Part shown: in pieces, positions 1,197 through 20,900 of the stretch | How the letters are laid out: each line of letters begins with the position of its first letter | Numbering within the stretch: the stretch's first letter is position 1 | From: Okeania sp. | GTDB lineage: Bacteria; Cyanobacteriota; Cyanobacteriia; Cyanobacteriales; Microcoleaceae | Assembly: GCF_035285525.1 (NCBI RefSeq) | Contig: NZ_JAYKGW010000110.1 | Coordinates: 1 to 28,889, forward strand | Direction of reading: 5' to 3' | DNA: 28,889 nt | Translations under genes and position numbers: made by a program | Notes under the pieces: model-generated | The model's database searches: none | Seen by the model: the letters and a program-made list of their open reading frames with translations, nothing else | Told to the model about the DNA's origin: nothing

Positions 1197-1285
1197 AGGG
1201 TTATTATTTTTTTAATGAGGTTTATTCTTCATTTATTCTACTGAAAAACTAACTGTTTAATAATAATTAAAATTTCACTTCAAGA

Positions 1286-2197
1286 ATGAGTAAGTTAATA
1301 GCTTTTGGATGGTATGGAGGAAAATTTAATCATCTTGATTGGTTACTACCACTGTTGCCAGAAACACAACATTACTGTGAACCTTTTGGTGGTTCGGCAG
1401 CAGTTTTATTGAATAGAAAACCCTCTGCTGTGGAAACCTATAACGATCTAGATGGAGAAGTTGTTAACTTTTTTAGAATGTTACGGGACTCTCAAGAAGA
1501 ACTAATTCAAAAGATCGCTCTTACTCCTTTTTCTAGAGAAGAATTTAAAATAGCGTTGACACCACCTACAGAAAAAATTTCTGATTTAGAACGTGCGCGT
1601 CGCTTTTTTGTCCGAGCCAGACAAGTCAGAACAGGATTAGCTCAAACTGCGAGTGTAGGACGTTGGGCACATTGTAAACTGACAACCAGAGCAGGAATGG
1701 CAGGTGCTGTTTCCCGTTGGTTAGGTAGTGTAGAAGGATTATCAGAAATTGTGCAAAGGTTACTGCGGGTGCAAATTGAAAATTCTCCAGCTATTGAGGT
1801 TATTAAACGTTTTGATAGTGAAGAAACACTTTTTTATTGCGATCCACCCTATCCCCACGACTCGCGGACCGATAAAAAAGCTTACGGATATGAAATGACC
1901 GATGACGAACACAGAAAATTAGCTGAAGTGCTGCATAGTGTTGAAGGTAAAGTTGCCATTTCTGGATATCATTGTCAATTGTTTGATACACTCTATCAAG
2001 ATTGGTATTGTATTAATGCTCCAGCAAAAAAAGCTCATTCGACTAATACTCGTAGTGACGGAAAAAAGCAAAACCGGGTTGAAGTTTTGTGGGTAAATTA
2101 TCAATTATCAGAACAGGAGATTAAATGTCAGAACCACAAGAAATCCTTGAAACCATCTATCGACGGGCAACAACTGACATTACCCGGTTTTTTATAG
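1286..2197 (+). CDS. N6-adenine DNA methyltransferase, Dam/D12 class
   Basis: 303 aa. It has N-terminal WYGGK and EPFGGSAAV (AdoMet motif I), then FYCDPPY (catalytic DPPY motif IV) downstream. The recognition sequence cannot be inferred. Confidence 0.9.
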   Translation: MSKLIAFGWYGGKFNHLDWLLPLLPETQHYCEPFGGSAAVLLNRKPSAVETYNDLDGEVVNFFRMLRDSQEELIQKIALTPFSREEFKIALTPPTEKISDLERARRFFVRARQVRTGLAQTASVGRWAHCKLTTRAGMAGAVSRWLGSVEGLSEIVQRLLRVQIENSPAIEVIKRFDSEETLFYCDPPYPHDSRTDKKAYGYEMTDDEHRKLAEVLHSVEGKVAISGYHCQLFDTLYQDWYCINAPAKKAHSTNTRSDGKKQNRVEVLWVNYQLSEQEIKCQNHKKSLKPSIDGQQLTLPGFL

Positions 2198-3261
2198 ATG
2201 ACAACGAAATGAGTCAACAAGTAGAATATATTGCCCGAAATCTCAAAAACCGTGCTGGAGTAAGATTATTGATGTCTTGCTTACTGGCAAAAATTCATAA
2301 ACCAGAACTAGATGTGAGAAAACCTTACACGGAGATAGGTAGTAATGATGCTTTTTCAGGACGTACTTATGATGAGCAATATATTACTCCTTTTATTAGT
2401 AAGTATAATTTGCCTTGTAATAATACAACAGCTTTTCTTACACCTGCTCTACGAAACCGTAACAATACTTTGACAAAAGACTTTAATCTTGTTGGCCGTC
2501 CACCACAACTTTATCGTGCTATTCTCAATTTATTGGATGATGTTTATAATAACCGTGTTTTACCTTTTGACCTTTTAACAGAAACTGTTCGTTGGTTGAT
2601 TATTCTGAGAAATGAAAGACAGCAACGCCTAGAATCATTGATTCAAACACTAAATACTACTAGAGATGATACACTGCTCTTGTCTTGTGAAGATATAGTT
2701 AATCTAATCGAAAAACATTTGAGTTTAAAAGGAACAAGTCGTCTTCCAGTCTTAATAGTAGCTGCTGCATATAAAGTAGCTGAAAAATACCTAAAAGAAA
2801 GGATACTTTCTCTTCATTCTCATAATGCTGCGGATATTCAAACAGGTGCATTAGGAGATGTAGAAATTACATTAATGGATAATGATGAGGTTGTAACTTG
2901 TTATGAAATAAAAAATAAATCTGTTACTAATAATGACATAGATAGAGCATTACAAAAATTATCTTTAGCTAATAAAAAAATAGATAACTATATCTTTATT
3001 ACTACTGAAAAAATTAATCCACAAGTTCAAGAATATGCCAGCTATTTATACTTAAATACTGGAGGAATAGAATTTGTTATTCTGGATTGTATTTCATTTA
3101 TTAGACATTTTCTCCATTTATTTTATAGGTTAAGAAATAATTTTTTAGAAGTGTATCAAGAACTAATTCTTGCAGAACCAGAAAGTTCAGTTAGTCAACC
3201 ATTGAAAGAAGCTTTTTTAGCAATGCGTCAAGCTGTTGAAGTTAGTATGGAGGATTCCTAA
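2125..3261 (+). CDS. Unclassified protein with PD-(D/E)XK-like motif; candidate restriction endonuclease partner of the Dam-class methyltransferase
   Basis: 378 aa. AGGAG at 2115-2119 lies 5 nt before ATG 2125. The ORF overlaps the methyltransferase 3' end by 73 nt in another frame. The C-terminal half contains ALGDVEITLMDNDEVVTCYEIKNK (D ... ExK spacing). I recognised no family. Confidence 0.6.
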   Translation: MSEPQEILETIYRRATTDITRFFIDDNEMSQQVEYIARNLKNRAGVRLLMSCLLAKIHKPELDVRKPYTEIGSNDAFSGRTYDEQYITPFISKYNLPCNNTTAFLTPALRNRNNTLTKDFNLVGRPPQLYRAILNLLDDVYNNRVLPFDLLTETVRWLIILRNERQQRLESLIQTLNTTRDDTLLLSCEDIVNLIEKHLSLKGTSRLPVLIVAAAYKVAEKYLKERILSLHSHNAADIQTGALGDVEITLMDNDEVVTCYEIKNKSVTNNDIDRALQKLSLANKKIDNYIFITTEKINPQVQEYASYLYLNTGGIEFVILDCISFIRHFLHLFYRLRNNFLEVYQELILAEPESSVSQPLKEAFLAMRQAVEVSMEDS

Positions 3262-3273
3262 TTTATACTATAG
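3205..3273. repeat. 69-bp direct repeat, copy 1 (last 19 codons and stop of ORF 2125-3261 plus 12 nt)
   Basis: aaagaagcttttttagcaatgcgtcaagctgttgaagttagtatggaggattcctaatttatactatag recurs at 6816-6876 + 6948-6955 with 2 mismatches. Confidence 0.9.
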
Positions 3274-3285
3274 CGCTTTCCAGTG

Positions 3286-4845
3286 TTATTGAGCAAAACT
3301 TTTGAAACTTGGTATAATCTCAATAATTTTATCTGCTGGAACATTACCAAGCTCTCTAGGCTCTAACTTATGTAAACCACCTCCATAAACTCGGCCTTCA
3401 CTTATCAATATATCTAACGAAATTTGATTCAAAATCTGCCAAACTTTCCTGAGTATATTCGGCTTTTTATTAAAAATATCCTCTAGCTCAAATTTCGGAT
3501 ACAAAATCAAATAAACATTTGTCGCTGTTGCCTGAGAATGATTCAAAATAAATCTAAATGGTGTTTTTTTGAGTCTATTTTGACGCCCCATATAAGTACA
3601 AACTAACGCTGATGATTTACGATATTCCTGTTGATACCATAATCGCCTATGTTTACACAAATAACGATTACTAATTCCCTTTTTTATTCCCATCTGAAGA
3701 TACTCCCAAAGTGAGGGATATTGAAATTGAATTTCATTCTTTGATATATCGCATGAAAGTAGAAATAACTGACGTTCTAAAATAGGATTACCTAAAGCAT
3801 CAGCTTCAATTTCATCAACTGAAAAATATCGCGGACTAGGTAAAATAGGAGTTAAAAATTCTGGAGGAAGTTTATATTTCGATATTTGTTCTGGCGTTAA
3901 AATAAAAAAATCATTTGCCCCAGTTGCTAAACCACGTTTGATTGTAAATAATTCTGATAATTTTACTCCCTGACGCTCGATATTTATCTTGCTATTTAAT
4001 TGAGAAATATTTGTCCATTTGTTAACATTTTTTAGTGCTTTAACAGATATAAATTGAGATTTATTGGGCTTAGTTAAGCTACCACTATATGTAAACTCAA
4101 CTTGATGATTATCTGATGGAATTTTATTTCTAAACCAAACTACTGAAGAAGATACAAGAACATTTTTAAACTGCATATCTTTGGGATCAAAGGAATGAAC
4201 TCGCAATAATGTTACTTGAGTTAATAAATAATCTCTAATTTGCTGTCCATAATTCACATCCATAAACCCACTAGGAATTAACCATGCAGCCAAACAATTT
4301 TTAGCCATCCAGCCATGAGATAGAAGTAGAAAATGACAATAAATTCCTGCTAATTTACTGAGCTTTATCCCAGTTATCTTTTTTGTTAAATTTTGCAATC
4401 TTAGCTTTTCATATTTAGTTAAATGATGATGTCTAATATAGGGAGGATTACAGATTATTAAATTAGCTTTAGCGGCATCAAATTCTGGTGGAATGCAAGT
4501 TGTAAAATCAGCAATATTTAATTTTAATCTTGTTTTATTCCAAAGCTGACTCGCTTCTTGACCACAGTGAGAATCTATTTCGTATCCAATAGCTTCATCA
4601 ATCTCTGATATAGGAAATAAGTTTAATAGGGCAGAATAAAAAGCACCTGTTCCAAAAGCAGGATCGAGAAAACGAATTTTGTCTTTAGGTAAAAACTTTA
4701 TACAATATTTAAGGATATCTTTTGCTAGTTCTGTTGGTGTAGCAAACTGACCAAGTTTATTTTTTTCAGCTTGAGTTTTAGCTGCATCAAGTTGGTTTTG
4801 TAATTTTATTCTGGCTAATTCTTGAGTTTGATTTACTATCATCAT
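3286..4845 (-). CDS. N6-adenine DNA methyltransferase, gamma-type (Eco57I/TaqI-like catalytic domain plus large C-terminal target-recognition region)
   Basis: 519 aa. FLDPAFGTGAF (motif I) is followed by LIICNPPYIRHH (NPPY motif IV). Its ATG (4843-4845) directly abuts the TAG stop (4846-4848) of the upstream nuclease gene. Confidence 0.9.
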   Translation of the reverse strand: MMIVNQTQELARIKLQNQLDAAKTQAEKNKLGQFATPTELAKDILKYCIKFLPKDKIRFLDPAFGTGAFYSALLNLFPISEIDEAIGYEIDSHCGQEASQLWNKTRLKLNIADFTTCIPPEFDAAKANLIICNPPYIRHHHLTKYEKLRLQNLTKKITGIKLSKLAGIYCHFLLLSHGWMAKNCLAAWLIPSGFMDVNYGQQIRDYLLTQVTLLRVHSFDPKDMQFKNVLVSSSVVWFRNKIPSDNHQVEFTYSGSLTKPNKSQFISVKALKNVNKWTNISQLNSKINIERQGVKLSELFTIKRGLATGANDFFILTPEQISKYKLPPEFLTPILPSPRYFSVDEIEADALGNPILERQLFLLSCDISKNEIQFQYPSLWEYLQMGIKKGISNRYLCKHRRLWYQQEYRKSSALVCTYMGRQNRLKKTPFRFILNHSQATATNVYLILYPKFELEDIFNKKPNILRKVWQILNQISLDILISEGRVYGGGLHKLEPRELGNVPADKIIEIIPSFKSFAQ

Positions 4846-5808
4846 CTACACTCCAAATAGTTCTAAATCATCTATGCGATGTTCCCAGATCCAGTCTATA
4901 CCTTCGGCAGCTTCATAGCCTAAATATCCACTATCAAAATAGCCACATAAAAATAAAATAAAATTGACACCTTTGCCGTAGGTATTTCTTAATTGATTAA
5001 TTTTAATAGCTTCTTCTTTCCGTCTTTTATTTGTATTTGTATAATCGCCTGCTGATTTCGCTTCAATTAATATTGGAAACTCACCAACTTGAGAATTAAA
5101 AGGCATAATAATAGTATCAATAGGAATATTAATCTGTTTGCTACCTTTAGGTTGTTTTACTGATATATTCATCCGAAATGAAAAACTGCCTGGATTGAGT
5201 CGATCAAATTGTAAACCACTGCCAGTTTCAATATAAGAATAACCCCTATTTTCTAACCAATTTTTTATAGTAGAAAGTTGCCTTTTTTCTTGAGCATTAC
5301 GAATAATAGGGTCAGCTATATTACCACATAAATGGTCAGCAACAATTGTCGCACCTCTACTAACTTCTATATCGGTTGGTTGTCTATCATTTTTGAGCCA
5401 AGGAAAGATATCTTTATCTAGCAATCTAATAATAATTAGACAAATTTTATCAAGCTCAGAATTAATTTGTTCTGGATTCATTCGTGGTGGTATTCTTAGT
5501 TTTTCTTCCATATTTTTAACAAGATTAGGTGGTACATCAGCAAGTCCAATGAGTCGGTCACGAGCAATAGGTGGTGCTGTTGCCATCCGTAATATAGGCA
5601 AAATAAATGGGTGTTGATACAGTATCTCCTGTGAGATATTTGTTAAATTAGCTGTCAACATTAATGTTGACTCAACCTTTTGAGTGGTACTAAGACGAGT
5701 TTCTTTGTATGTTATTGGGGCAAACTCAAGAAACCAATTATTGTAGAAATCTACTGACTGAGCAATATCTTTTTTCCACAGATGGGGTTTATCTGCATTT
5801 ACTGGCAT
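4846..5808 (-). CDS. Type II restriction endonuclease candidate (PD-(D/E)XK; pattern recalls the XamI family)
   Basis: Preferred start is ATG 5806-5808 (MPVNADKPHLWKKD, 320 aa). IPIDTIIMPFNSQVGEFPILIEAKSAGD gives D ... EAK. The stop abuts the methyltransferase start. The XamI-like call rests on remembered similarity (DKPHLW, LRMATAPPIARDRLIGLA) and on the usual pairing with Eco57I-type methyltransferases. Confidence 0.7.
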   Translation of the reverse strand: MPVNADKPHLWKKDIAQSVDFYNNWFLEFAPITYKETRLSTTQKVESTLMLTANLTNISQEILYQHPFILPILRMATAPPIARDRLIGLADVPPNLVKNMEEKLRIPPRMNPEQINSELDKICLIIIRLLDKDIFPWLKNDRQPTDIEVSRGATIVADHLCGNIADPIIRNAQEKRQLSTIKNWLENRGYSYIETGSGLQFDRLNPGSFSFRMNISVKQPKGSKQINIPIDTIIMPFNSQVGEFPILIEAKSAGDYTNTNKRRKEEAIKINQLRNTYGKGVNFILFLCGYFDSGYLGYEAAEGIDWIWEHRIDDLELFGV

Positions 5809-5991
5809 TACTAAAACTTTTAAGCTCCAAATAATAATTTTAATTACAAGCGGAATGGAAGTTGAAACAAAGTAGAGACGTTGCATACAACTTCCCTACA
5901 GATTTATCATTTTTAGGACTTACGCAAAGTCTAATAATTTGATTGTTTTATTCATATTTTTACCTTATAATAATTATAGCTATAAATTCAT

Positions 5992-6756
5992 TTAATCCCA
6001 TTCAATTTCTTTTCCATAAAGTATGGAATAATAAATTTCTGGTCTATTTTCAATATCTGAACTTATTCTTAAAGGATAACCATTTTCTATCTTCTCAAAA
6101 AAGAGAATAAACTCATTATCTTTTTGAAATAATTCTGCCTTGTAACCTTTTATTTTTACTTTTCCCTGCTTAAGTAAGTGAGCATCATTACTAGGTCTTT
6201 GTCGATCAACTTTGGGTTTTGGATACTTCTTTATCAGTTCTGAAGATGACCAATTATAGTAATTATTAAATGATAAGGGTATGTAATCATCAGCAGCATA
6301 TCTAAGTTCTGAGGAAGTTGAACGAGGATCGGAAGCTATTTTTACATACATTCCCATACTAACTAGACTTTCAACAACTGGTTTAAAATCTCGATCGCCA
6401 GCAATTAAAACTGCATTAGTCATATTATTACGAATCGTGTGATTCATCATATCTACTGTTAATAAAACATCGACTTCTTTTTGACGTTTATTGTTTGGAG
6501 AACCTACTAAACTTCCTAACTTAACGTGATATCCTTCCAGAGAACGGATTTGATTAAAATCATCTTTTTGTTTAGATTTACGAGCTTTAAAATCTTCATC
6601 TTTCTCATTTTTATTCTGAATTTCATCAAGGCAGTCATAATAGAAAACTTTTTTAGCTTTAAAATGTTTTTTGACTGCAGAAAAGTCAATATTTCTCAAC
6701 TCTACAACATCATTGTTGAACCATTTAGAAATAGCTTTTTTGTACTTGTCTCTCAA
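5992..6756 (-). CDS. NYN-domain (LabA/PIN-like) putative RNase with an uncharacterised ~100-aa C-terminal region; 5' end looks defective
   Basis: EVDVLLTVDMM and AVLIAGDRDFKPVVESL match NYN acidic motifs. The track ORF starts at TTG 6754-6756. The frame stays open up to 6813 and encodes EITYLFIDGGYL, the first NYN motif, upstream of any in-frame ATG/GTG/TTG. Confidence 0.7.
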   Translation of the reverse strand: MRDKYKKAISKWFNNDVVELRNIDFSAVKKHFKAKKVFYYDCLDEIQNKNEKDEDFKARKSKQKDDFNQIRSLEGYHVKLGSLVGSPNNKRQKEVDVLLTVDMMNHTIRNNMTNAVLIAGDRDFKPVVESLVSMGMYVKIASDPRSTSSELRYAADDYIPLSFNNYYNWSSSELIKKYPKPKVDRQRPSNDAHLLKQGKVKIKGYKAELFQKDNEFILFFEKIENGYPLRISSDIENRPEIYYSILYGKEIEWD

Positions 6757-6815
6757 ATAACCTCCATCAATAAATAAATACGTTATTTCTGGTGGTTCAT
6801 TACTTATTATTTGTC

Positions 6816-6955
6816 AAAGAAGCTTTTTTAGCAATGCGTCAAGCTGTTGAAGTTAGTACGGAGGATTCCTAAATTATCAGGACTTACACACGCATATCAA
6901 ATCATACATCAGTTGTAGGGTTTAACGGCCTTCTGCGTAAGTCCTGATACTATAG
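6816..6955. repeat. 69-bp direct repeat, copy 2, split by a 71-bp MITE (repeat parts 6816-6876 and 6948-6955)
   Basis: Same 69-mer as 3205-3273. Mismatches are t3248/c6859 and t3262/a6873. Confidence 0.9.
6877..6947. mobile_element. 71-bp MITE with terminal inverted repeats TCAGGACTTAC ... GTAAGTCCTGA
   Basis: It interrupts repeat copy 2 exactly where copy 1 is continuous (cctaa[t/a]tta^tactatag). The same termini occur at 7234-7335, and a solo end occurs at ~5918-5934. Confidence 0.8.
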
Positions 6956-7062
6956 AACTAATTGTTTAATAATAATTAAAGTCTAACTTAAAGAATGAGT
7001 AAATTAATAGCTTGTGGATGGTATAGAGGAAAATTTAATCATCTTGATTGGTTATTGCCACA
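6956..7062 (+). pseudogene. Remnant of the Dam-class methyltransferase 5' region (upstream 39 nt plus first 22 codons)
   Basis: About 90% identical to 1247-1353 (10 mismatches in 107 by my count). It reads MSKLIACGWYRGKFNHLDWLLP from ATG 6995, with WYGGK changed to WYRGK. It then diverges and stops at 7103-7105. Confidence 0.8.
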
Positions 7063-7111
7063 CTTTGTTGTAGTTTATATATTTGACTCTGAAAACTTTT
7101 TATAAAACTTT

Positions 7112-7150
7112 TGTAGAGACTTTCCCAAGAAAGTCTCTACATTTTCTTTT
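7112..7150. terminator. Intrinsic-terminator-like hairpin (12-bp perfect stem, 6-nt loop, T-run)
   Basis: tgtagagacttt cccaag aaagtctctaca is followed by ttttctttt on the plus strand. The minus strand also has a T-rich tract after the stem, so it could close the minus-strand serC-like operon as well. Confidence 0.6.
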
Positions 7151-7233
7151 CCAGATTATAATATTAAATCTGGTTCAAAAACATCACAATCAATAAACCA
7201 AAATAATGATTATGAACTAACTGAATCTATATT

Positions 7234-7335
7234 AGGACTTACCCACGCGAAACCCGGTTTCGCTGGATAAATCCTTGTTTTGAGCAATAGACATCTACGA
7301 GAAACCGGGTTTCTAGGTTCTCCTGCGTAAGTCCT
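7234..7335. mobile_element. ~100-bp MITE, AGGACTTAC ... GTAAGTCCT termini with internal GAAACCCGGTTTC / GAAACCGGGTTTC motifs
   Basis: The terminal inverted repeats match the 6877-6947 element. It lies 10 nt downstream of the serC-like stop. Confidence 0.7.
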
Positions 7336-7345
7336 GTATATAGAA

Positions 7346-8458
7346 TCAAGCAGATTTTTGATAGTTAGTTTTTTGAGCAAACTTGTCCATAAATTCGATT
7401 AGATGTTGAACTGCATCTAAAGTGACAGCATTATAAAGACTGACACGACATCCTCCCTTAGTACGATGTCCTGCTACACCAACAAGTCCAGATGCAAACG
7501 CTTCCTGAATAAACTCTTGTTCCAAGCTTCTTGTCGGCAATGTAAAAACTACATTCATCATCGATCGCGACTCAACTTCGACAGGACAATTAAATAAAGG
7601 TGTCGCATCAATAAAATCATAGAGAGCAGAAGATTTTTGCCAATTAATCTTCTCCATTGCTTCCACACCACCAATATCTTCCTCTATCCAGCGCAAAATA
7701 TGCCACATCATATAGATAGAAAAACAGGGAGGTGTATGATAGTTAGACTTGCGTTCGATATGGGTACGATAGTCTAAAAGTTCTGGTATATCGTCCGGAC
7801 TATTTGCCAAAATACTCTTTCGGATCACAACCGCAGTCACCCCTGAAAGTCCGACATTTTTCTGAGCGTGTGCATATATACAAGCACAGGGAGAAGGATC
7901 GATCGCCTTACTCAAAAAGTCAGAACTCATATCAGCAACTATGGGAATTGGAACTTCAGGGAAGTCCTTAAATTGAGTTCCGACAACAGTATTATTAGTG
8001 CAAAGATGTAAATATTTAGCACCAGAGCGTGTTTGAATACTGTCAGAGCTAGGCACATAAGTATGGTCGTGATCGCCTGATTCAGCAATAATCTTTAAAT
8101 CTCGACCCAAACTTTTAGCTGCTTTAATAGCTTTTTCCGCCCAATATCCGGTATCAATATAATCTATCTTATCTCCGGGATGAGATAAATTCATTGGGAC
8201 CATCAGAAATTGTAGCGAACCTCCCCCTTGAAGAAATATCACTTCAAAGTCATCGGGCAAATTCATCATTCTCTTAATTCGAGCAGCACTGTCATCAATA
8301 ATATGCTGAATCTCATCTGTGCGATGGCTTAATTCCATCACACTCATACCTGTATTATTGTAGTTAAACCATTCCGAGTGAACTCGCTCCAGCACAGGTA
8401 AAGGTAAGGCACCAGGACCTGCATAAAAATTGTCAACTCTATCTTTTCTATGTTTCAT
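7346..8458 (-). CDS. serC: Phosphoserine aminotransferase (SerC family, class V aminotransferase)
   Basis: 370 aa, colinear with E. coli SerC as I remember it. Shared segments are FYAGPGALP, VMELSHR, FLQGGGSLQF, IYAHAQKNVGLSGVTAVVIR (PLP lysine), RSMMNVVF and GHRTKGGCRVSLYNA. Confidence 0.9.
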   Translation of the reverse strand: MKHRKDRVDNFYAGPGALPLPVLERVHSEWFNYNNTGMSVMELSHRTDEIQHIIDDSAARIKRMMNLPDDFEVIFLQGGGSLQFLMVPMNLSHPGDKIDYIDTGYWAEKAIKAAKSLGRDLKIIAESGDHDHTYVPSSDSIQTRSGAKYLHLCTNNTVVGTQFKDFPEVPIPIVADMSSDFLSKAIDPSPCACIYAHAQKNVGLSGVTAVVIRKSILANSPDDIPELLDYRTHIERKSNYHTPPCFSIYMMWHILRWIEEDIGGVEAMEKINWQKSSALYDFIDATPLFNCPVEVESRSMMNVVFTLPTRSLEQEFIQEAFASGLVGVAGHRTKGGCRVSLYNAVTLDAVQHLIEFMDKFAQKTNYQKSA

Positions 8459-9447
8459 TGAGGTTTCTGTGCAGTAATTATATTTAGCTGTGTAGGTAAA
8501 AGAATTTGTTTGTGATTCTCAAAACCAACATTGGTCAACCAAGAAACAACTTCTTCACCCGTAAAATCTCCAGCTCGAGGACTGAAAGCAATTTTCACAT
8601 ACATATCCATCATCGTGTCTAAGAAATGCTTTTCCTTGTTTTCCCCTATCTGGGTAAAATCTTGCACAATAACCAGTCCTCCTGGTTGTAATACCTCAAA
8701 AGCACGAGCACAGATTTTACGGTTTTCCTCTTCATTAGTAACAACGAATACTCCCGAAATCAGAACGACATCATAATCTGTATCTAATTCTATAGTGTGA
8801 AAATTTCCCTCTTTGAGAATGACACGATCGCTCACCTTCTTTTCTTCTACTTGCTTTTGAGCCAACTCTAAAGGTTCTTTTGCATCCAAAAGGCAGACTT
8901 GAAGATTAGGATAAGCTTGGCAAAGTGGTATGCTATAACTACCCATACCACCGCCTACATCAAGTAATTTCTTTCGTCCTGTCAAATCTGTATTTTGAAT
9001 CAGATTGTTTATTTGACCAGACTCTGCACGGTTATGTTGTCCGTAGATATAGTCTCTCCAGTAAGTCGGAGCATCTACAAAACCATTCTCAAAGGGTAGT
9101 TCTGTTCGCCCTTCTATAATCAATTGGTCTAACTTTCCCCAAGTTGACCAATAATTTGTGATGTGTAGTGCCAAGTCACCCAGATAATCAACTTTACCTG
9201 GTATCAGACGATCTGATGTATCTTGAGTGTTTTTGTACTCATTCCCATTTTTTTCTAGGAAACCCAAAACTACACAAGCTTCTAAAAAAGCGCGGGTAAA
9301 TTTGGGGTCGCTATTGAAATATTTGATAATAAATTCATCGGAACAAGGTTGCTTTTCTTCCAGGAGTGAAAAGATTCCTAATTTTATTCCTGCCCTAAGA
9401 ACAGCAGTATTCCAAAATTGATAAATTGTCTCGTAAGCAATGCTCAT
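8455..9447 (-). CDS. Class I SAM-dependent methyltransferase, O-methyltransferase-like (N-terminal helical/dimerisation region)
   Basis: 330 aa. It has LLDVGGGMGSYS (GxGxG motif I), an acidic LLD after beta-2 and VLQPGGLVIVQD. Its stop overlaps the serC-like start by 4 nt (ATGA). Confidence 0.85.
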   Translation of the reverse strand: MSIAYETIYQFWNTAVLRAGIKLGIFSLLEEKQPCSDEFIIKYFNSDPKFTRAFLEACVVLGFLEKNGNEYKNTQDTSDRLIPGKVDYLGDLALHITNYWSTWGKLDQLIIEGRTELPFENGFVDAPTYWRDYIYGQHNRAESGQINNLIQNTDLTGRKKLLDVGGGMGSYSIPLCQAYPNLQVCLLDAKEPLELAQKQVEEKKVSDRVILKEGNFHTIELDTDYDVVLISGVFVVTNEEENRKICARAFEVLQPGGLVIVQDFTQIGENKEKHFLDTMMDMYVKIAFSPRAGDFTGEEVVSWLTNVGFENHKQILLPTQLNIITAQKPQ

Positions 9448-9801
9448 TATTTTCGTTACTTTATTAACGTCACACAGTAATATTTTGTAGAGACCCTGTA
9501 TTTAACATCTCTACTACTGCAACCAGATACTTGGCCACTATAAATTTAGAGGTAAAATTTAATAATGCCAAATTTCTAAAGATGGAAGTATACCCCTACT
9601 ATTAGTCTTAAACAAAAAGGTTTAATCCTCTTGCTGGAACCAACTTTATTTTTAGGACATTTCACATCATATAACGAATAAAAAATATAGGCAAATTAAA
9701 AATTTTTTGTATATAAAACACTATTAGTTTTCTAGACAATGGATGATACAAAGAAATAAGTCTAAAATTCTGAATATACTAACAAAAAAATCTAAAATCT
9801 A

Positions 9802-12729
9802 ATGGTTGAAGCAAAATCCTATAAAGACACTGTAAACCTGCCCCAAACCAACTTTAATATGAGGGCAAACTCAGTCACCCGCGAACCAGAACTCCAAAAG
9901 TTTTGGGCAGAATCACAAATCTATGAACGTCTCTCAGAAACTAACCCAGGGGAAATCTTCACCCTACATGATGGCCCACCTTATGCTAATGGCAACCTAC
10001 ATATTGGCCATGCCATGAATAAAATCCTCAAAGATATTATCAATCGCTATCAAATTCTCCAAGGGCGAAAAGTACGTTATGTTCCTGGTTGGGACTGCCA
10101 CGGTTTACCCATCGAATTAAAAGTTATTCAAAATCTGAAATCAGCAGAAAGGGCAAAACTCACACCTATCGAACTGCGTCGCAAAGCTAGAGATTTTGCT
10201 CTGGAAACTATAGACAAACAACGGGAGTCATTCAAACGTTATGGAGTTTGGGGAGACTGGGAAACTCCCTACATGACTCTTTCTCCAGAATATGAAGCTG
10301 CTCAAATTGGGGTTTTTGGCAAAATGGTTTTGGAAGGCTACATTTATCGTGGTCTCAAACCTGTACATTGGAGTCCGAGTTCTCAAACTGCTCTCGCGGA
10401 AGCAGAACTGGAATATCCTGAAGGGCACAAATCTCCCAGTATCTACGCTGCTTTTAAAATTACGAAACTAACGGAAGCAGTTGCAGAGTCTCTCACACCT
10501 TATCTGGAAAAACTCTGGGTTGCGATCTGGACGACGACACCTTGGACGATACCTGGTAACTTGGCAGTCAGCGTTAACCCCGACTTGGATTATGCTATTG
10601 TTGAACCTGATGCTGACTATCCGATGGGAAAAAACAAATTATTTATAGTTGCAGCGGAAGCAGTGGAACGTTTGTCGGCAACTCTCAATACAACGTTAAC
10701 TCCTGTAGCAACGGTCAAAGGTAAAGACTTAGAAAACTGCACTTACCAACATCCACTGTTTGAGCGGGAAAGTAAAATAGTTATTGGTGGCGACTACGTT
10801 ACTACTGACTCAGGTACAGGTTTAGTTCACACCGCTCCCGGTCACGGTCAGGAAGACTATATTGTAGGGCAACGTTATGGTTTACCAATTTTGTCACCTG
10901 TAGATGGCAATGGAAAATTTACTGCGGAAGCGGGAGAGTTTGCCGGGTTAAAGGTACTTGATGAAGGCAATGCTGCCATCATTGAAGCACTGCAAAATGT
11001 TCATTCTCTCTTGAAAGAGGAACCCTACGAACACAAATATCCTTACGATTGGCGTACCAAAAAACCGACTATTTTCCGAGCAACCGAACAATGGTTTGCT
11101 TCTGTGGAAGGTTTCCGGAATGAAGCACTTAAGGCGATCGCTAATGTTAACTGGATACCTGCTCAAGGAGAAAACCGGATTACTCCAATGGTAAGCGATC
11201 GCTCTGATTGGTGTATTTCTCGACAAAGAAGTTGGGGTGTTCCTATTCCTGTTTTTTATAACGAGGAAACTGGGGAACCTTTGATGACTGAGGAAACGAT
11301 CGCTCATGTGCAAAAAATTGTTGCGGAAAAAGGTTCTGATGCTTGGTGGGAAATGTCGGTAGCGGAACTTTTACCGGAAACCTATCGCCAAGATGCTGAT
11401 AAGTACCGCAAAGGTATGGATACAATGGATGTTTGGTTTGATTCTGGTTCATCTTGGGCAGCGGTTGCTCAACAACGGGAAGGTTTGAAATATCCGGTTG
11501 ATATATATTTGGAAGGTTCGGATCAACATCGCGGTTGGTTTCAGTCAAGTTTGTTGACGAGTATTGCGACTAATGGTGTTGCACCATATAAAACTGTTTT
11601 GACTCATGGTTTTGTGCTGGATGAAAACGGTCGCAAAATGAGTAAGTCTCTAGGAAATGTGGTAGATCCGGCAATAGTTATCGAAGGCGGTAAAAATCAA
11701 AAACAAGAACCTCCTTATGGTGCAGATATTTTGCGTTTGTGGGTTTCTTCGGTTGACTATTCTTCTGATGTTCCCCTGGGTAAAAATATTCTCAAGCAAA
11801 CAGCAGATATTTATCGCAAAATTAGAAACACGGCGCGATTTTTATTAGGAAATATCCATGATTTCGATCCAGAAAAAGATGCTGTTGCTTATGAAGAAAT
11901 GCCAGAGTTAGACCGTTATATGTTGCATCGAATGACAGAGGTATTTGCTGAAATCAAGGATGGTTTTGAAAAGTTTCAATATTTCCGCTTTTTTCAAACA
12001 ATTCAAAATTTCTGTGTGGTAGATTTATCTAATTTTTATTTAGATATTGCTAAAGACAGACTTTATATTAGTGCAACGGATGCTTTCAGACGTCGTAGTT
12101 GTCAAACAGTTTTAGCTGTCGCTGTGGAAAACTTGGCAAAAGCCATCGCTCCAATTTTACCTCATACAGCAGAAGATATTTGGCAAAATCTTCCGTATCC
12201 GACTCCCTACAAATCTGTATTTGAGTCTGGATGGATAAAATTAGACGAAAAATGGCATAATCCAGAATTAATTAACTTATGGGAAAAAGTACGAGAAATT
12301 CGCACTGAAGTCAACAAAGTATTAGAAAAAGCCAGAGCAGAAAAAGCTATTGGTGCGCCTCTAGAAGCAAAAGTATTATTGTTTATAAAAGATGCGGAAT
12401 TACGGGAAAAAATGTCAATTTTTAACCCTAAAGCAGAAACAGAAACCTTACCTGAAACAGCAAAAGATATTAAAGCAATGATGCCGGGAAATGGAGTAGA
12501 TGAATTACGTTATTTGTTTATTACTTCTCAAGTAGAAATATTAGAAAATCCAGAAACTTTAACTGATTTAGAATATAAATCTATATCAGATTCTTTAGGA
12601 ATAGGAGTAGTTAAAGCAGATGGTCATAAATGCGATCGCTGTTGGAATTATTCTACTCATATTGGTGTTTTCTCAGAAGACCCCACAATTTGTGAACGTT
12701 GTGTTATTGCTTTAGCAGGAGAATTTTAA
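9802..12729 (+). CDS. ileS: Isoleucine--tRNA ligase
   Basis: 975 aa. It has PYANGNLHIGHAMNK (HIGH), RKMSKSLGN (KMSKS), an editing-domain insertion and a C-terminal CDRCWNY ... CERC zinc finger. Confidence 0.97.
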   Translation: MVEAKSYKDTVNLPQTNFNMRANSVTREPELQKFWAESQIYERLSETNPGEIFTLHDGPPYANGNLHIGHAMNKILKDIINRYQILQGRKVRYVPGWDCHGLPIELKVIQNLKSAERAKLTPIELRRKARDFALETIDKQRESFKRYGVWGDWETPYMTLSPEYEAAQIGVFGKMVLEGYIYRGLKPVHWSPSSQTALAEAELEYPEGHKSPSIYAAFKITKLTEAVAESLTPYLEKLWVAIWTTTPWTIPGNLAVSVNPDLDYAIVEPDADYPMGKNKLFIVAAEAVERLSATLNTTLTPVATVKGKDLENCTYQHPLFERESKIVIGGDYVTTDSGTGLVHTAPGHGQEDYIVGQRYGLPILSPVDGNGKFTAEAGEFAGLKVLDEGNAAIIEALQNVHSLLKEEPYEHKYPYDWRTKKPTIFRATEQWFASVEGFRNEALKAIANVNWIPAQGENRITPMVSDRSDWCISRQRSWGVPIPVFYNEETGEPLMTEETIAHVQKIVAEKGSDAWWEMSVAELLPETYRQDADKYRKGMDTMDVWFDSGSSWAAVAQQREGLKYPVDIYLEGSDQHRGWFQSSLLTSIATNGVAPYKTVLTHGFVLDENGRKMSKSLGNVVDPAIVIEGGKNQKQEPPYGADILRLWVSSVDYSSDVPLGKNILKQTADIYRKIRNTARFLLGNIHDFDPEKDAVAYEEMPELDRYMLHRMTEVFAEIKDGFEKFQYFRFFQTIQNFCVVDLSNFYLDIAKDRLYISATDAFRRRSCQTVLAVAVENLAKAIAPILPHTAEDIWQNLPYPTPYKSVFESGWIKLDEKWHNPELINLWEKVREIRTEVNKVLEKARAEKAIGAPLEAKVLLFIKDAELREKMSIFNPKAETETLPETAKDIKAMMPGNGVDELRYLFITSQVEILENPETLTDLEYKSISDSLGIGVVKADGHKCDRCWNYSTHIGVFSEDPTICERCVIALAGEF

Positions 12730-14290: not shown

Positions 14291-15079
14291 ATGAAAGAAA
14301 TAATTAACGACATTTTAACTAACTTAAGTCAGATTAAACTACCAGCGCCATCATATTTTGATTCTCTAAAAACTTACACAGTTAAAAAAGTATCAGATGC
14401 CGATACCATTGATGTTATTGATAATGATTCTGATACAGAAATGACGATTCGTTTCGTTTATATTGATGCTCCAGAAACTTCCAAAGGATGGGGAGATTCA
14501 CAAGTAGAAAAAATGAACCGTAAATATGAAAATCCCCTTTATCGTAGTCAATTTGAATGGGGAGAAAAAGGCACAGAAAGACTCAAAGAATTAGTTGAAA
14601 AAAGTAATAATCAAGTTAAACTTAAAATTACTGGAGAAGAAAAAAGACCAGGGCGATCGCCTCGTTTTTTTGGAGAAGTTTATTTATTAGATGGTACTTT
14701 TGTGCAACACCTTTTAGTACAAGAAGGTTTAGCTCGAATTTATTATGATTATATTAGTGAATGCCCAAGAGAAAACGCAATTATGTTATTTTTAGCTGAA
14801 GCTGATGCTCAAATAAATCAACGAGGAATATGGCAAGAACTCCAATCAGAATTTATCGCACCTTGGTTATTTCGTTCACTAAAAAACAAACAAAAAAAGT
14901 TTCTCAAAAATATTAGTAAAGAATTAGAAGAAGCTGAAATAGAAAGTCAATTCGAGTCTAAATTACAGCAGCAAAATAAAATTTTATCAACTCTTTTTGT
15001 AGACCTAAAAAATGGTATAATTACTCAACCTGAATTTGAGGATAAATGCAAAAAAGAACTGAATAATTTATTTGTATAA
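14291..15079 (+). CDS. Staphylococcal-nuclease-fold (thermonuclease-like) protein with C-terminal coiled region and SHOCT-like tail
   Basis: 262 aa. It has VSDADTIDV, IRFVYIDAPET, GRSPRFFGEVY, LVQEGLARIY and RGIW in SNase order. The tail reads LKNGIITQPEFEDKCKKEL. There is no N-terminal hydrophobic signal. Confidence 0.8.
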   Translation: MKEIINDILTNLSQIKLPAPSYFDSLKTYTVKKVSDADTIDVIDNDSDTEMTIRFVYIDAPETSKGWGDSQVEKMNRKYENPLYRSQFEWGEKGTERLKELVEKSNNQVKLKITGEEKRPGRSPRFFGEVYLLDGTFVQHLLVQEGLARIYYDYISECPRENAIMLFLAEADAQINQRGIWQELQSEFIAPWLFRSLKNKQKKFLKNISKELEEAEIESQFESKLQQQNKILSTLFVDLKNGIITQPEFEDKCKKELNNLFV

Positions 15080-15432: not shown

Positions 15433-16071
15433 ATGAACAACCTCCAAACCAAATTACCAATAGATGTCTGGCTAACAGCTACTTGGGATGAATACATTCA
15501 AACTGTTGAGAAACAAGAAAAAGCTAAATGTTATTATCACAATGGACAACTAAGAATTGAAATGGCTCCCCAAGGTTACGACCATTCTTACAATAACTTT
15601 TCTGTCGGAGCTGCTGTAGCTTTATTCAGTGGTATTAAAGCTATTCCTCTGGTAGGAGTTACTAACTGTTCTTTCCGAAAAATTGGTACAGCAGAAGTAC
15701 AACCAGACTTGGCATTCTACATTGGTGAAAATGCAGAAATTATCCCCCCGGATACAACTATTATCGACCTAAATATTTATCCACCTCCCGATTTAATAAT
15801 TGAAATTGCCAAAACATCTTTTTCTGATGATATTGGTAGTAAAAGAATGCTTTATGAAAAACTAAACTGTAGAGAATACTGGGTAGTAAATGTAGCTTAT
15901 GCTCAACTAATTGCTTTTGAAATTGTTTCTGGTGGGAGTAGAGCGATCGACAAATCACAAGTTTTACCCCCATTACCTTTTAGCTTACTTGAAGAAGCAT
16001 TGCGTCGGTGTCGAACAACAGGCCGGAGTCAGATATATGCTTGGTTAATTAGCCAAATTCAAAATATTTAA
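15433..16071 (+). CDS. Uma2 (DUF820) family PD-(D/E)XK endonuclease-like protein
   Basis: 212 aa with QPDLAFYIG, DLIIEIAKTS and EYWVVN, the usual Uma2 motif order. Confidence 0.85.
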   Translation: MNNLQTKLPIDVWLTATWDEYIQTVEKQEKAKCYYHNGQLRIEMAPQGYDHSYNNFSVGAAVALFSGIKAIPLVGVTNCSFRKIGTAEVQPDLAFYIGENAEIIPPDTTIIDLNIYPPPDLIIEIAKTSFSDDIGSKRMLYEKLNCREYWVVNVAYAQLIAFEIVSGGSRAIDKSQVLPPLPFSLLEEALRRCRTTGRSQIYAWLISQIQNI

Positions 16072-19835: not shown

Positions 19836-20708
19836 CTATGCCTCTATTTCTAATTTTGACGAACTACTATCAGTATCGGAAGTAAATGATGGTATATGCA
19901 TATTCTTTATTTCCCATACTTTCATAAGTATGAGATATTCATAGAAAGCCTGCAAAGTACACCAAGCCAACCCGGCCTGGCCATCAAGAAATCCTCTCAG
20001 AAAAATATACATATAAATGAAGCGAACTATTGGTCTAAAAGGTAAGCGTAGAGAAAAGTCTTTGAGAGCCCGTCTTCTTTCTACTTCCGAATCACCAAAA
20101 AATAAGTTTTTCCAAGATACGCTTCCAGTTTCTAATTGTATAAGTGTTTCCGCAGCTTCATCTGTAGAATAACGATTGTGCTTTTCTATCCAACGAGAGA
20201 TACCTTTACTACAGGTATAATGGGGATAACTTTCTCCCAAAAAACTTGTGGGACCATCACAAACTTCTCGTTCCGTGTGACCATAGTCACTAAACCAAAC
20301 TTTATCTTTGCGAAATAGGCGCATTTGATAGCGGGGATATTGGGTGCTATTGCGAATCCAAGTTCCCAGAAATATCACCCGTTCTGCAACATAATATCCA
20401 ATATATTCTTGACTTTCGATTTTTTTGAGACATTCGTTGAATAATTCTGGGGTCATCCGTTCATCTGCTTCTAAGATATAAACCCACTCATATTTAGCCG
20501 GGACTTCCTCTAACATCCATGTTCGCTGTCGCCCATGACTTTCAAATTTGTGTTGGACTATTCTTACAGGGTAGGACTCAGCTATTTCTATAGTTCGATC
20601 ACTACTAAATGAATCCAGTATTATAATGTCATCTGACAACATTGCTGACTCTATACAATCAGCAATATCTATTTCTTCATTGTAAGTCAGTATGTAAATT
20701 GAGAACAT
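19836..20708 (-). CDS. Family 2 glycosyltransferase
   Basis: 290 aa with the N-terminal IYILTYNEE ... IIILDSFSSDRT ... ILEADERM pattern of GT-A/GT2 enzymes. Confidence 0.85.
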   Translation of the reverse strand: MFSIYILTYNEEIDIADCIESAMLSDDIIILDSFSSDRTIEIAESYPVRIVQHKFESHGRQRTWMLEEVPAKYEWVYILEADERMTPELFNECLKKIESQEYIGYYVAERVIFLGTWIRNSTQYPRYQMRLFRKDKVWFSDYGHTEREVCDGPTSFLGESYPHYTCSKGISRWIEKHNRYSTDEAAETLIQLETGSVSWKNLFFGDSEVERRRALKDFSLRLPFRPIVRFIYMYIFLRGFLDGQAGLAWCTLQAFYEYLILMKVWEIKNMHIPSFTSDTDSSSSKLEIEA

Positions 20709-20900
20709 TCGATGAATTTTAGTAACTTCTTTTTAATAAAATCAAATTAGTTAATGTCAAATCCGGCAGTATTGGTACAATCCAATACTGTAGTAGTTTG
20801 GTCACTAAACACCCCTAAAAATTTCTAATACTCACAGGAAAATCTCCCAATTCTAAAGTAAGCTAATTTGATAAAGTTAATTTAACTTAATTGAATTAAA

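Follow-up and report, generated by a model that had tools for sequence, protein, structure and literature searches.

Restriction-modification (R-M) genes can enter a genome by 'insertion with long target duplication' (Nobusato/Kobayashi, H. pylori; Furuta, Abe & Kobayashi 2010, PMC2853133). In the latter study such events were recognised by an insert that contains R and M genes, is shorter than 20 kb and lacks mobility genes, and by a repeat of more than 30 bp, which is present in a single copy at a collinear empty site; a cyanobacterium is among the published examples. Here we analyse a 28,889-nt stretch of Okeania sp. DNA (assembly GCF_035285525.1, contig NZ_JAYKGW010000110.1, positions 1-28,889, forward strand; 'the window'), in which the genes of a XamI-family restriction endonuclease and an Eco57I-type DNA methyltransferase, together with an open reading frame (ORF) for an NYN-family nuclease, lie between the copies of a 69-bp direct repeat. 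We think it probable that this block is a fragment of another haplotype of the same locus, inserted with a 69-bp target duplication, which delivered the R-M pair and took along the NYN ORF as a passenger, and that the site is an R-M hotspot beside the ileS gene. The event is an ordinary fresh example of the published insertion mode, and no new system is revealed by it.

The locus shares with the class described in PMC2853133 an insert of less than 20 kb, which includes R and M genes and no integrase or transposase gene, and direct repeats of more than 30 bp, which are single-copy at the related empty site; an earlier note on this DNA had proposed this mode, which the locus fits on descriptive grounds. 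As in the H. influenzae cases of the same study, the 3' end of a host gene forms part of the repeat. Unlike the published class, the insert includes a bystander gene that has been truncated, as well as scars from the donor locus, one copy of the repeat holds a miniature inverted-repeat transposable element (MITE) that the other copy lacks, the target is the tail of another R-M unit, and the donor was probably an allelic haplotype of the same locus.

Materials and methods

The window is a contig of a metagenome-assembled genome (MAG). The earlier note suggested comparison with Nostocales genomes; the organism is Okeania (Oscillatoriales), and about 30 related Okeania/Dapis/Trichodesmium loci (L numbers) were gathered by a genome scan with an NYN alignment and by exact-protein look-ups. 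An exact look-up of the SacI-family endonuclease protein of the window gave no match, although its cluster includes the window's own record. R denotes the SacI-family endonuclease gene of the host, B and B' the left and right copies of the 69-bp repeat, and A and A' the copies of a 114-bp repeat. Nucleotide identity between the window and its relatives, measured separately for the two segments, was ~90-92% for ileS and ~90-92% for the cassette.

Results

Structure of the repeat-flanked block

The copies B and B' are identical in 67/69 nt, and their length exceeds the 30-bp criterion of PMC2853133. Positions 3205-3266 recur at 6816-6877 with two mismatches (t3248/c6859, t3262/a6873), as the earlier note had seen, and the last 7-8 nt of the left copy (tACTATAG, 3266-3273) resume at 6948-6955, past a 70-nt element. 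No comparable repeat pair was found in 100 dinucleotide-preserving shuffles. The insert between the copies (3274-6815) is 3,542 bp long and has three ORFs of at least 90 aa, none of them related to mobility: those of the methylase, the XamI homologue and the NYN protein, all on the minus strand. It includes homologues of both R and M genes (RE_XamI, Eco57I/N6_Mtase) and an orphan MITE end, and it contains no integrase, transposase or prophage genes. The gap of 12 nt between the repeat and the stop codon of the methylase gene was also given correctly in the earlier note. Its statement that the insertion lies inside an R-M unit has to be amended: the site is 12 nt past the stop codon of the endonuclease, within no gene, and the host R gene is intact.

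A second direct repeat of 114 bp, which the earlier note had overlooked, consists of the 5' region of the Dam-like methyltransferase gene that precedes R (copies A and A', 89% identical by repeat search and alignment). The first 8 nt of A' complete B', thus the right 69-mer leads directly into a Dam 5' remnant. The start of A' is identical in 49/49 nt to the empty-site contigs L030 and L037 described below, and A' is native to the empty site. The sequence of A' resembles the Dam 5' region of other strains (96.5% identical to L011) more than it resembles A, its counterpart in the window.

The 23 nt at the left end of the insert, CGCTTTCCAGTGTTATTGAGCAA, have no counterpart in any relative examined; they may be either filler or donor flank. 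When the left-junction string CGCTTTCCAGTGTT was searched in every fetched locus in order to find the donor, it was found only in the window and in L001, a contig of the Logan assembly of SRR19514071. At the right end, where the NYN ORF joins B' (6815/6816), we looked for microhomology and none was visible.

L001 is 100% identical to the window over 3218-6845. This span covers both junctions, and the ends of the contig are at the points where the repeat must interrupt a k=31 graph, thus both junctions are real. The possibility that L001 represents a circular element was considered and rejected: a 3,611-bp circle assembled at k=31 predicts 3,641 nt, whereas the observed length of 3,628 nt is the span expected of a linear repeat-flanked copy. 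The same contig bears on the question of an assembly artefact. The window being part of a MAG, and several haplotypes of the locus coexisting in nature, sequences of two strains might have been fused by the assembler at the 3' end of R, which is repeated. We regard this as extremely improbable, because a repeat-mediated chimera would hold the repeat once and not on both sides of the block, because the NYN-B' join shares no k-mer with either parent, and because the independent Logan assembly reproduces 3218-6845 exactly, with ends that fit k=31 breaks in a linear repeat-flanked structure.

The empty site and the haplotypes of the locus

In L037 (Trichodesmium sp. MO_231.B1) the locus reads Dam, R, one 69-mer, MITE, Dam remnant, serC, O-methyltransferase, ileS (haplotype H6). 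This locus is collinear with the window over 1227-3266 (94.1%), 6813-7230 and 7346-12445 (90.6%), contains the 69-mer in a single copy, and lacks the methylase, XamI and NYN genes. The short contig L030 shows the same junction between R, the 69-mer, the MITE and the remnant. At this locus the window thus corresponds to H6 with the 3,542-bp block and a further 69-mer added, and the single 69-mer at a collinear site without cassette, for which the earlier note had advised a search, supports the insertion reading.

The likely source of the block is indicated by haplotype H2, found in L002, L004, L009, L011 and L012. There Dam is followed by R cut after 10 nt, a stretch of 27 nt, the methylase and XamI genes, a MITE end, a 9-codon stub of a DUF4926 gene, NYN and ileS, i.e. 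the XamI pair takes the place of R from codon 4 through codon 9 of DUF4926. Window positions 3288-6804 are collinear at 90-92% with these five loci, in which the cassette abuts ileS. Since the block shares the H2 scars (the MITE end at 5913-5928 and the stub at 5929-5955), it is best explained as a copy of an H2-type locus. The existence of relatives with the cassette at ileS and a Dam remnant on the other side had suggested that the cassette was ancestral in place and 6805-9731 was inserted. This reading was dropped because L037 has serC, the O-methyltransferase gene and ileS contiguous with R-B-A' and no cassette.

Two other arrangements were found. H1 (L032-L035, L118) consists of Dam, R, DUF4926, NYN and ileS and has no XamI pair. 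In H3 (L031, Okeania SIO2C2) the XamI pair, without NYN, is flanked by 904-bp copies of the 5' part of Dam, which are 92.4% identical; Dam, R, DUF4926, NYN and ileS come next. The 904-bp repeats of L031 are at 5513-6408 and 9108-10011, and the left Dam copy is disrupted. L036 (Okeania sp. SIO3C4) contains a 186-bp direct repeat of the 3' end of R (10962-11147 and 11898-12083, 90.3% identical), which flanks a DUF4926 fragment and a CowN-family gene; its second copy abuts the upstream region of ileS. From these arrangements the locus appears to be a hypervariable R-M hotspot beside ileS. It resembles the allelic substitution of R-M genes at a hotspot reported in PMC2853133 in that the same flanks hold the Dam/SacI-family unit, the XamI/Eco57I-type pair, both or neither; it differs from it in that the window presents an addition with duplication.

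The NYN reading frame and its neighbours

The NYN frame of the window is closed by a TGA at 6816-6814, and there is no ATG, GTG or TTG before the TTG at 6756, which falls past the catalytic FIDGG motif. The ORF is thus without a usable start. The 'nearest ATG' of the earlier note (6800-6798), 15 nt away from the repeat, is in another frame, which encodes only MNHQK before a stop codon. NYN homologues have 279-283 aa and are 6-10 codons longer at the 5' end; they start with MPIIPR-QIISNEPPE or MPITAR-QIISNQPP, the window reads TGA-QIISNEPPE, and it has lost the first ~6 codons. A structural model of the full-length homologue P0002 (pLDDT 93) matches 2qip (E = 5e-8) and the NYN domain of MARF1; in this model strand 1 and the first catalytic Asp are at residues 17-22, upstream of the sole canonical start that remains in the window. 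The ~75 residues at the C terminus, which are rich in beta structure, were not matched in a whole-chain Foldseek search. The native promoter of the gene has been lost, and a terminator-like hairpin separates the ORF from transcription of serC. The rest of the ORF is intact and has kept every family-invariant residue. Taken together, it is likely that the window copy is not expressed as a functional protein.

NYN is found beside ileS in 13 related Okeania/Dapis assemblies. In 6 of the 13 no XamI pair adjoins it: the pair is missing there in L010, L032, L034, L035 and L118, and in L031 Dam, R and DUF4926 intervene. The eight distant NYN loci (Acidobacteriota, Planctomycetota) have no XamI or Eco57I-type gene, their neighbours are housekeeping genes. 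PADLOC gave only weak partial matches for the NYN protein (NYN, E = 2e-7; HEC-09, E = 8.5e-7, residues 109-184).

Beside ileS, NYN is paired with a small DUF4926 gene in a conserved module of two genes (L032 747-1846, L031 11198-12300, L118 1218-2347), in which DUF4926 is called either as overlapping NYN by 10 nt or as starting ~36 nt downstream. By analogy, this arrangement resembles a toxin-antitoxin pair. A 303-aa paralogue of NYN (~51-53% identical) is found across the variable R-M block, at a distance of 4-13 kb from the NYN gene beside ileS and oriented like it (L002 13868-14779, L011 14190-15077, L013-L018 at 10001); in some strains it is beside serC.

The XamI/Eco57I-type pair

The profile searches that the earlier note had advised matched all three families (NYN, RE_XamI, Eco57I). 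Judged by the ORFs and the full-length domains, the XamI/Eco57I-type pair is intact and probably functional. As XamI homologues have 320 aa, the true start of the endonuclease is probably near 5808. In 78 of 80 metagenomic XamI loci the Eco57I-type methylase gene is directly downstream of XamI, in the same R-then-M order as in the window. None of these 80 loci contains an NYN gene by tblastn with 15 queries or by a hidden Markov model, which detected every positive control; in 55 of the loci the sequence upstream of XamI extends to 1 kb or more. Matches on plasmids (Planktothrix, Fischerella, Chroococcidiopsis, Psychrobacter and others) cover only 47-2538 of the query, i.e. the two R-M genes. 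The two-gene pair is the recurrent module, a common and widely dispersed type II unit. The sequence GTCGAC does not occur in the 28.9 kb (2.8 sites expected), which is a hint that it may be the sequence recognised by the XamI/SalI-type pair and protected by m6A methylation.

These data bear on the suggestion of the earlier note that NYN, XamI and the methylase form a three-gene mobile defence or addiction system, in which NYN would be an RNA-targeting second effector. In the window and in about 6 related genomes the three genes adjoin each other on the same strand, they moved together physically in the window, the NYN protein has the weak similarity to defence-associated models given above, and HEC-09 is a precedent for NYN genes embedded in defence loci (bioRxiv 10.1101/2024.01.29.577857). 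Like HEC-09, the window has a NYN-fold gene in or beside a defence locus that contains a methylase. The likeness is limited: only ~75 residues match, the N-terminal domain of HEC-09 is different, and the NYN gene of the window is truncated and linked to ileS and DUF4926, not to the R-M genes; moreover, HEC-09 gave no defence in tests (same source). The usual partner of NYN is DUF4926, which is reduced here to a stub, and the window copy has neither a start codon nor a native promoter and has a terminator-like hairpin upstream. The linkage of NYN to ileS where the pair is missing, its absence from the 80 XamI loci, the absence of the pair from the eight distant NYN loci, and the plasmid copies without NYN all argue that NYN is not a component of the R-M system. 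Outside one lineage NYN homologues occur without this pair, a finding that the earlier note had named as evidence against its reading, and the adjacency within the lineage can be attributed to inheritance from the donor locus. The three-gene interpretation is thus largely refuted and very improbable. What stands of it is the joint movement as one 3,542-bp block between the repeat copies; NYN as a functional component is unsupported, and we take the gene to be a resident neighbour of ileS that became a truncated passenger.

MITE copies

The 70-nt element in B' is a MITE whose orthologue in L037 and L030 occupies the same site and has 97 nt; relative to it, the window copy has a ~27-nt internal deletion. 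Members of the family have the ends (C/T)AGGACTTAC...GTAAGTCCTG. The left copy B lacks the MITE and keeps the 7 nt beyond the MITE site. A further MITE of the family, downstream of serC, is recent, as it is absent from L037, L008 and L017.

The host R-M unit and flanking genes

The coordinates of the features are listed in Table 1. The Dam and R genes overlap by 73 nt. Homologues of the R protein with 65-93% identity carry the name 'restriction endonuclease, SacI family'; PADLOC gave no match for the SacI-family enzyme or for DUF4926. The Dam/SacI-family unit has a direct copy of the Dam 5' region on either side, the downstream one beginning directly after the stop codon of R; the counterpart copies in L037 are at 9114-9228 and 11237-11386. 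On sequence grounds this looks like the relic of a tandem duplication or of an earlier duplication-insertion.

Table 1. Features of the window around the repeat-flanked block
Feature	Position	Strand	Remarks
A, left copy of 114-bp direct repeat	1239-1352	+	Dam upstream region and first 22 codons
D12-class (Dam-like) N6-adenine DNA methyltransferase	1286-2197	+	Pfam MethyltransfD12 E = 2.8e-24; PADLOC MTase_II E = 8e-57
SacI-family restriction endonuclease (R)	2125-3261	+	Pfam RE_SacI above cutoff; intact, 378 aa
B, left copy of 69-bp direct repeat	3205-3273		last 19 codons of R, TAA and 12 nt; MITE-less
Left junction	3274-3296		23 nt, CGCTTTCCAGTGTTATTGAGCAA; supplies last 3 codons and stop of the methylase
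Eco57I-type (gamma-class) N6-adenine DNA methyltransferase	3286-4845	-	Pfam Eco57I / N6_Mtase; PADLOC MTase_II E = 3e-127
XamI-family type II restriction endonuclease	4846-5886	-	Pfam RE_XamI E = 7e-117, profile 2-256 of 256
Orphan MITE end, TTAGGACTTACGCAAA	5913-5928		right edge of the two-gene R-M module; also in relatives
DUF4926 stub	5929-5955	-	9 codons (MNKTIKLLD); compared with intact DUF4926 of L032 and L031
NYN (LabA-like, PIN-like fold) nuclease ORF	5992-6813	-	273 codons; Pfam NYN 64.9 bits, cutoff 24.2
NYN-B' join	6815/6816		TTATTTGTCAAAGAAGC
B', right copy of 69-bp repeat, first 62 nt	6816-6877		2 mismatches
MITE in B'	6878-6947		70 nt; inverted ends CAGGACTTAC...GTAAGTCCTG
A', right copy of 114-bp repeat	6948-7061	+	Dam 5' remnant (upstream region and 22 codons)
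Bidirectional terminator-like hairpin	7112-7141		between serC and truncated NYN
Second MITE of the same family	7231-7336		downstream of serC
serC	7346-8458	-	right flank, common to the empty site
O-methyltransferase	8455-9447	-	right flank, common to the empty site
ileS	9802-12729	+	conserved anchor gene of the locus

Promoter-like matches around 5800-7400 were no more frequent than expected by chance, and an Rfam scan of the window gave no match. The ileS product of the window has 975 aa, as compared to ~1,151 aa in all relatives, whose ileS carries a CAAD domain; ~0.5 kb of the relatives' gene is missing in frame near 12432-12445. Downstream of ileS there is a staphylococcal-nuclease-like ORF (14291-15079) and an ORF of the Uma2 family (putative restriction endonuclease, 15433-16071), which add to the nuclease genes in the neighbourhood of the hotspot. 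At the left contig end an 86-nt direct repeat (1-86 and 159-244) is 97% identical, copies of which are also found near the Dam upstream region in L009, L015, L031 and L036. A pair of small conserved ORFs of 101 and 65 aa, neither of which matched a family, is at 667-1156; their usual place is just upstream of Dam. In Okeania SIO2C2 (L031) this ORF pair is on the other side of ileS (20142-20831), which indicates that the region is freely rearranged.

The cyanobacterial HIP1 octamer GCGATCGC occurs 11 times in the window (0.08 expected) and is absent from the first 11.1 kb, which includes the R-M block, serC and the O-methyltransferase gene. GATC is under-represented (52 observed, 93 expected), and there is no GAGCTC site (2.8 expected).

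Discussion

The comparison of the haplotypes suggests the following event. A fragment of 3,542 bp would have entered 12 nt past the stop codon of R, leaving the host R gene intact and the 69-bp target on both sides. Its source would be the allelic haplotype of sister Okeania/Dapis genomes, in which methylase, XamI, MITE end, DUF4926 stub, NYN and ileS follow each other. The left break would have been just past the methylase stop and the right break within NYN at about codon 7, thus the start-less NYN would have been carried along merely as the adjacent gene of the donor locus.

Several observations weigh against this explanation in its simplest form. The MITE is inside the 69-bp target in B', L037 and L030, but not in B, which rules out a one-step duplication of the present-day empty site. 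If both ends were joined illegitimately, the position of the block, less than 3 kb from its allelic site, would be a coincidence. The lack of microhomology at the NYN-B' join is unusual for homology-facilitated illegitimate recombination, the left junction matches nothing, and the exact donor was not found among the fetched loci. It is also possible, as the NYN ORF is otherwise intact, that the protein has residual function from a non-canonical start.

The MITE asymmetry can be accommodated in more than one way. The target may have been a MITE-less site, reading TTTATACTATAGAACTAATTG directly after the R stop, which was duplicated in situ, the MITE entering the right copy later. The empty-site contigs would then have lost the cassette by recombination between the repeats, or gained the MITE allele by homologous exchange. 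We give this route a good chance, if somewhat short of an even one. Another possibility, only slightly less probable, is a two-allele event, in which R-B-cassette DNA of another strain was joined to a MITE-bearing recipient by homologous recombination in Dam/R and one illegitimate joint, between NYN codon 7 and nt -57 of R. The donor in this case would hold TATAGCGCTTTCCAGTG and an intact NYN 5' end next to ileS. That a Dam/R anchor and one illegitimate joint could yield the repeat recalls homology-facilitated illegitimate recombination (PMC3240628), a mechanism under which the MITE asymmetry and the position of the block beside its allelic site would be understandable as well; a homologous anchor by itself would account for the block being within 3 kb of that site. 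The window differs from that mechanism in its joint without microhomology and in that the donor haplotype was not found. It is unlikely that the target was duplicated in situ and the left copy then lost the MITE precisely.

The sequence of the repeats gives conflicting hints. B and B' share one base (the A in GTTAGT) that is absent from five other alleles, which is easier to explain by in-situ duplication or gene conversion than by a two-strain origin and thus speaks against the two-allele route. On the other hand, the other long repeats at the locus are only 89-92% identical, i.e. they show allele-level divergence, which speaks for a two-strain origin.

It could also be argued that the repeat-flanked arrangement is old and that L037 and L030 arose from it secondarily, the cassette having been deleted by recombination between the 69-bp copies. 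Such deletions would account for the presence of the MITE in B' and the empty site and its absence from B; B differs from B' in two positions, no fewer than from L037 (2), and the cassette, being 5-10% divergent from its relatives, need not be recent. We find this rather unlikely. The base shared by B and B' is absent from L037 and L030, the changes specific to B' are absent from L037, and the original insertion with duplication would still be required, thus the timing would be altered and the nature of the event unchanged.

A more speculative idea assigns a role to the resident genes: NYN, perhaps with DUF4926, could be a 'gatekeeper' or guardian of the R-M hotspot, which either aids or selects duplication-insertions or acts as a toxin-antitoxin or abortive-infection module that stabilises the adjacent R-M unit. 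NYN is beside ileS in nearly all relatives, its 303-aa paralogue lies across the variable block in several genomes, and at least four long direct duplications (69, 114, 186 and 904 bp) are located between the two NYN genes. Even so, we find the idea highly doubtful.

Returning to the insertion of an H2-type fragment with target duplication, what is mildly notable is the density of events at one locus, where 69-, 114-, 186- and 904-bp repeats flank different inserts across strains. The window shows that such insertions can drag along and decapitate a neighbouring gene, and it calls for caution, since adjacency of genes inside a repeat-bounded block need not mean a new defence architecture. The locus is a natural haplotype series, with empty, substituted, doubly occupied and repeat-flanked states, for studying how such duplications form.

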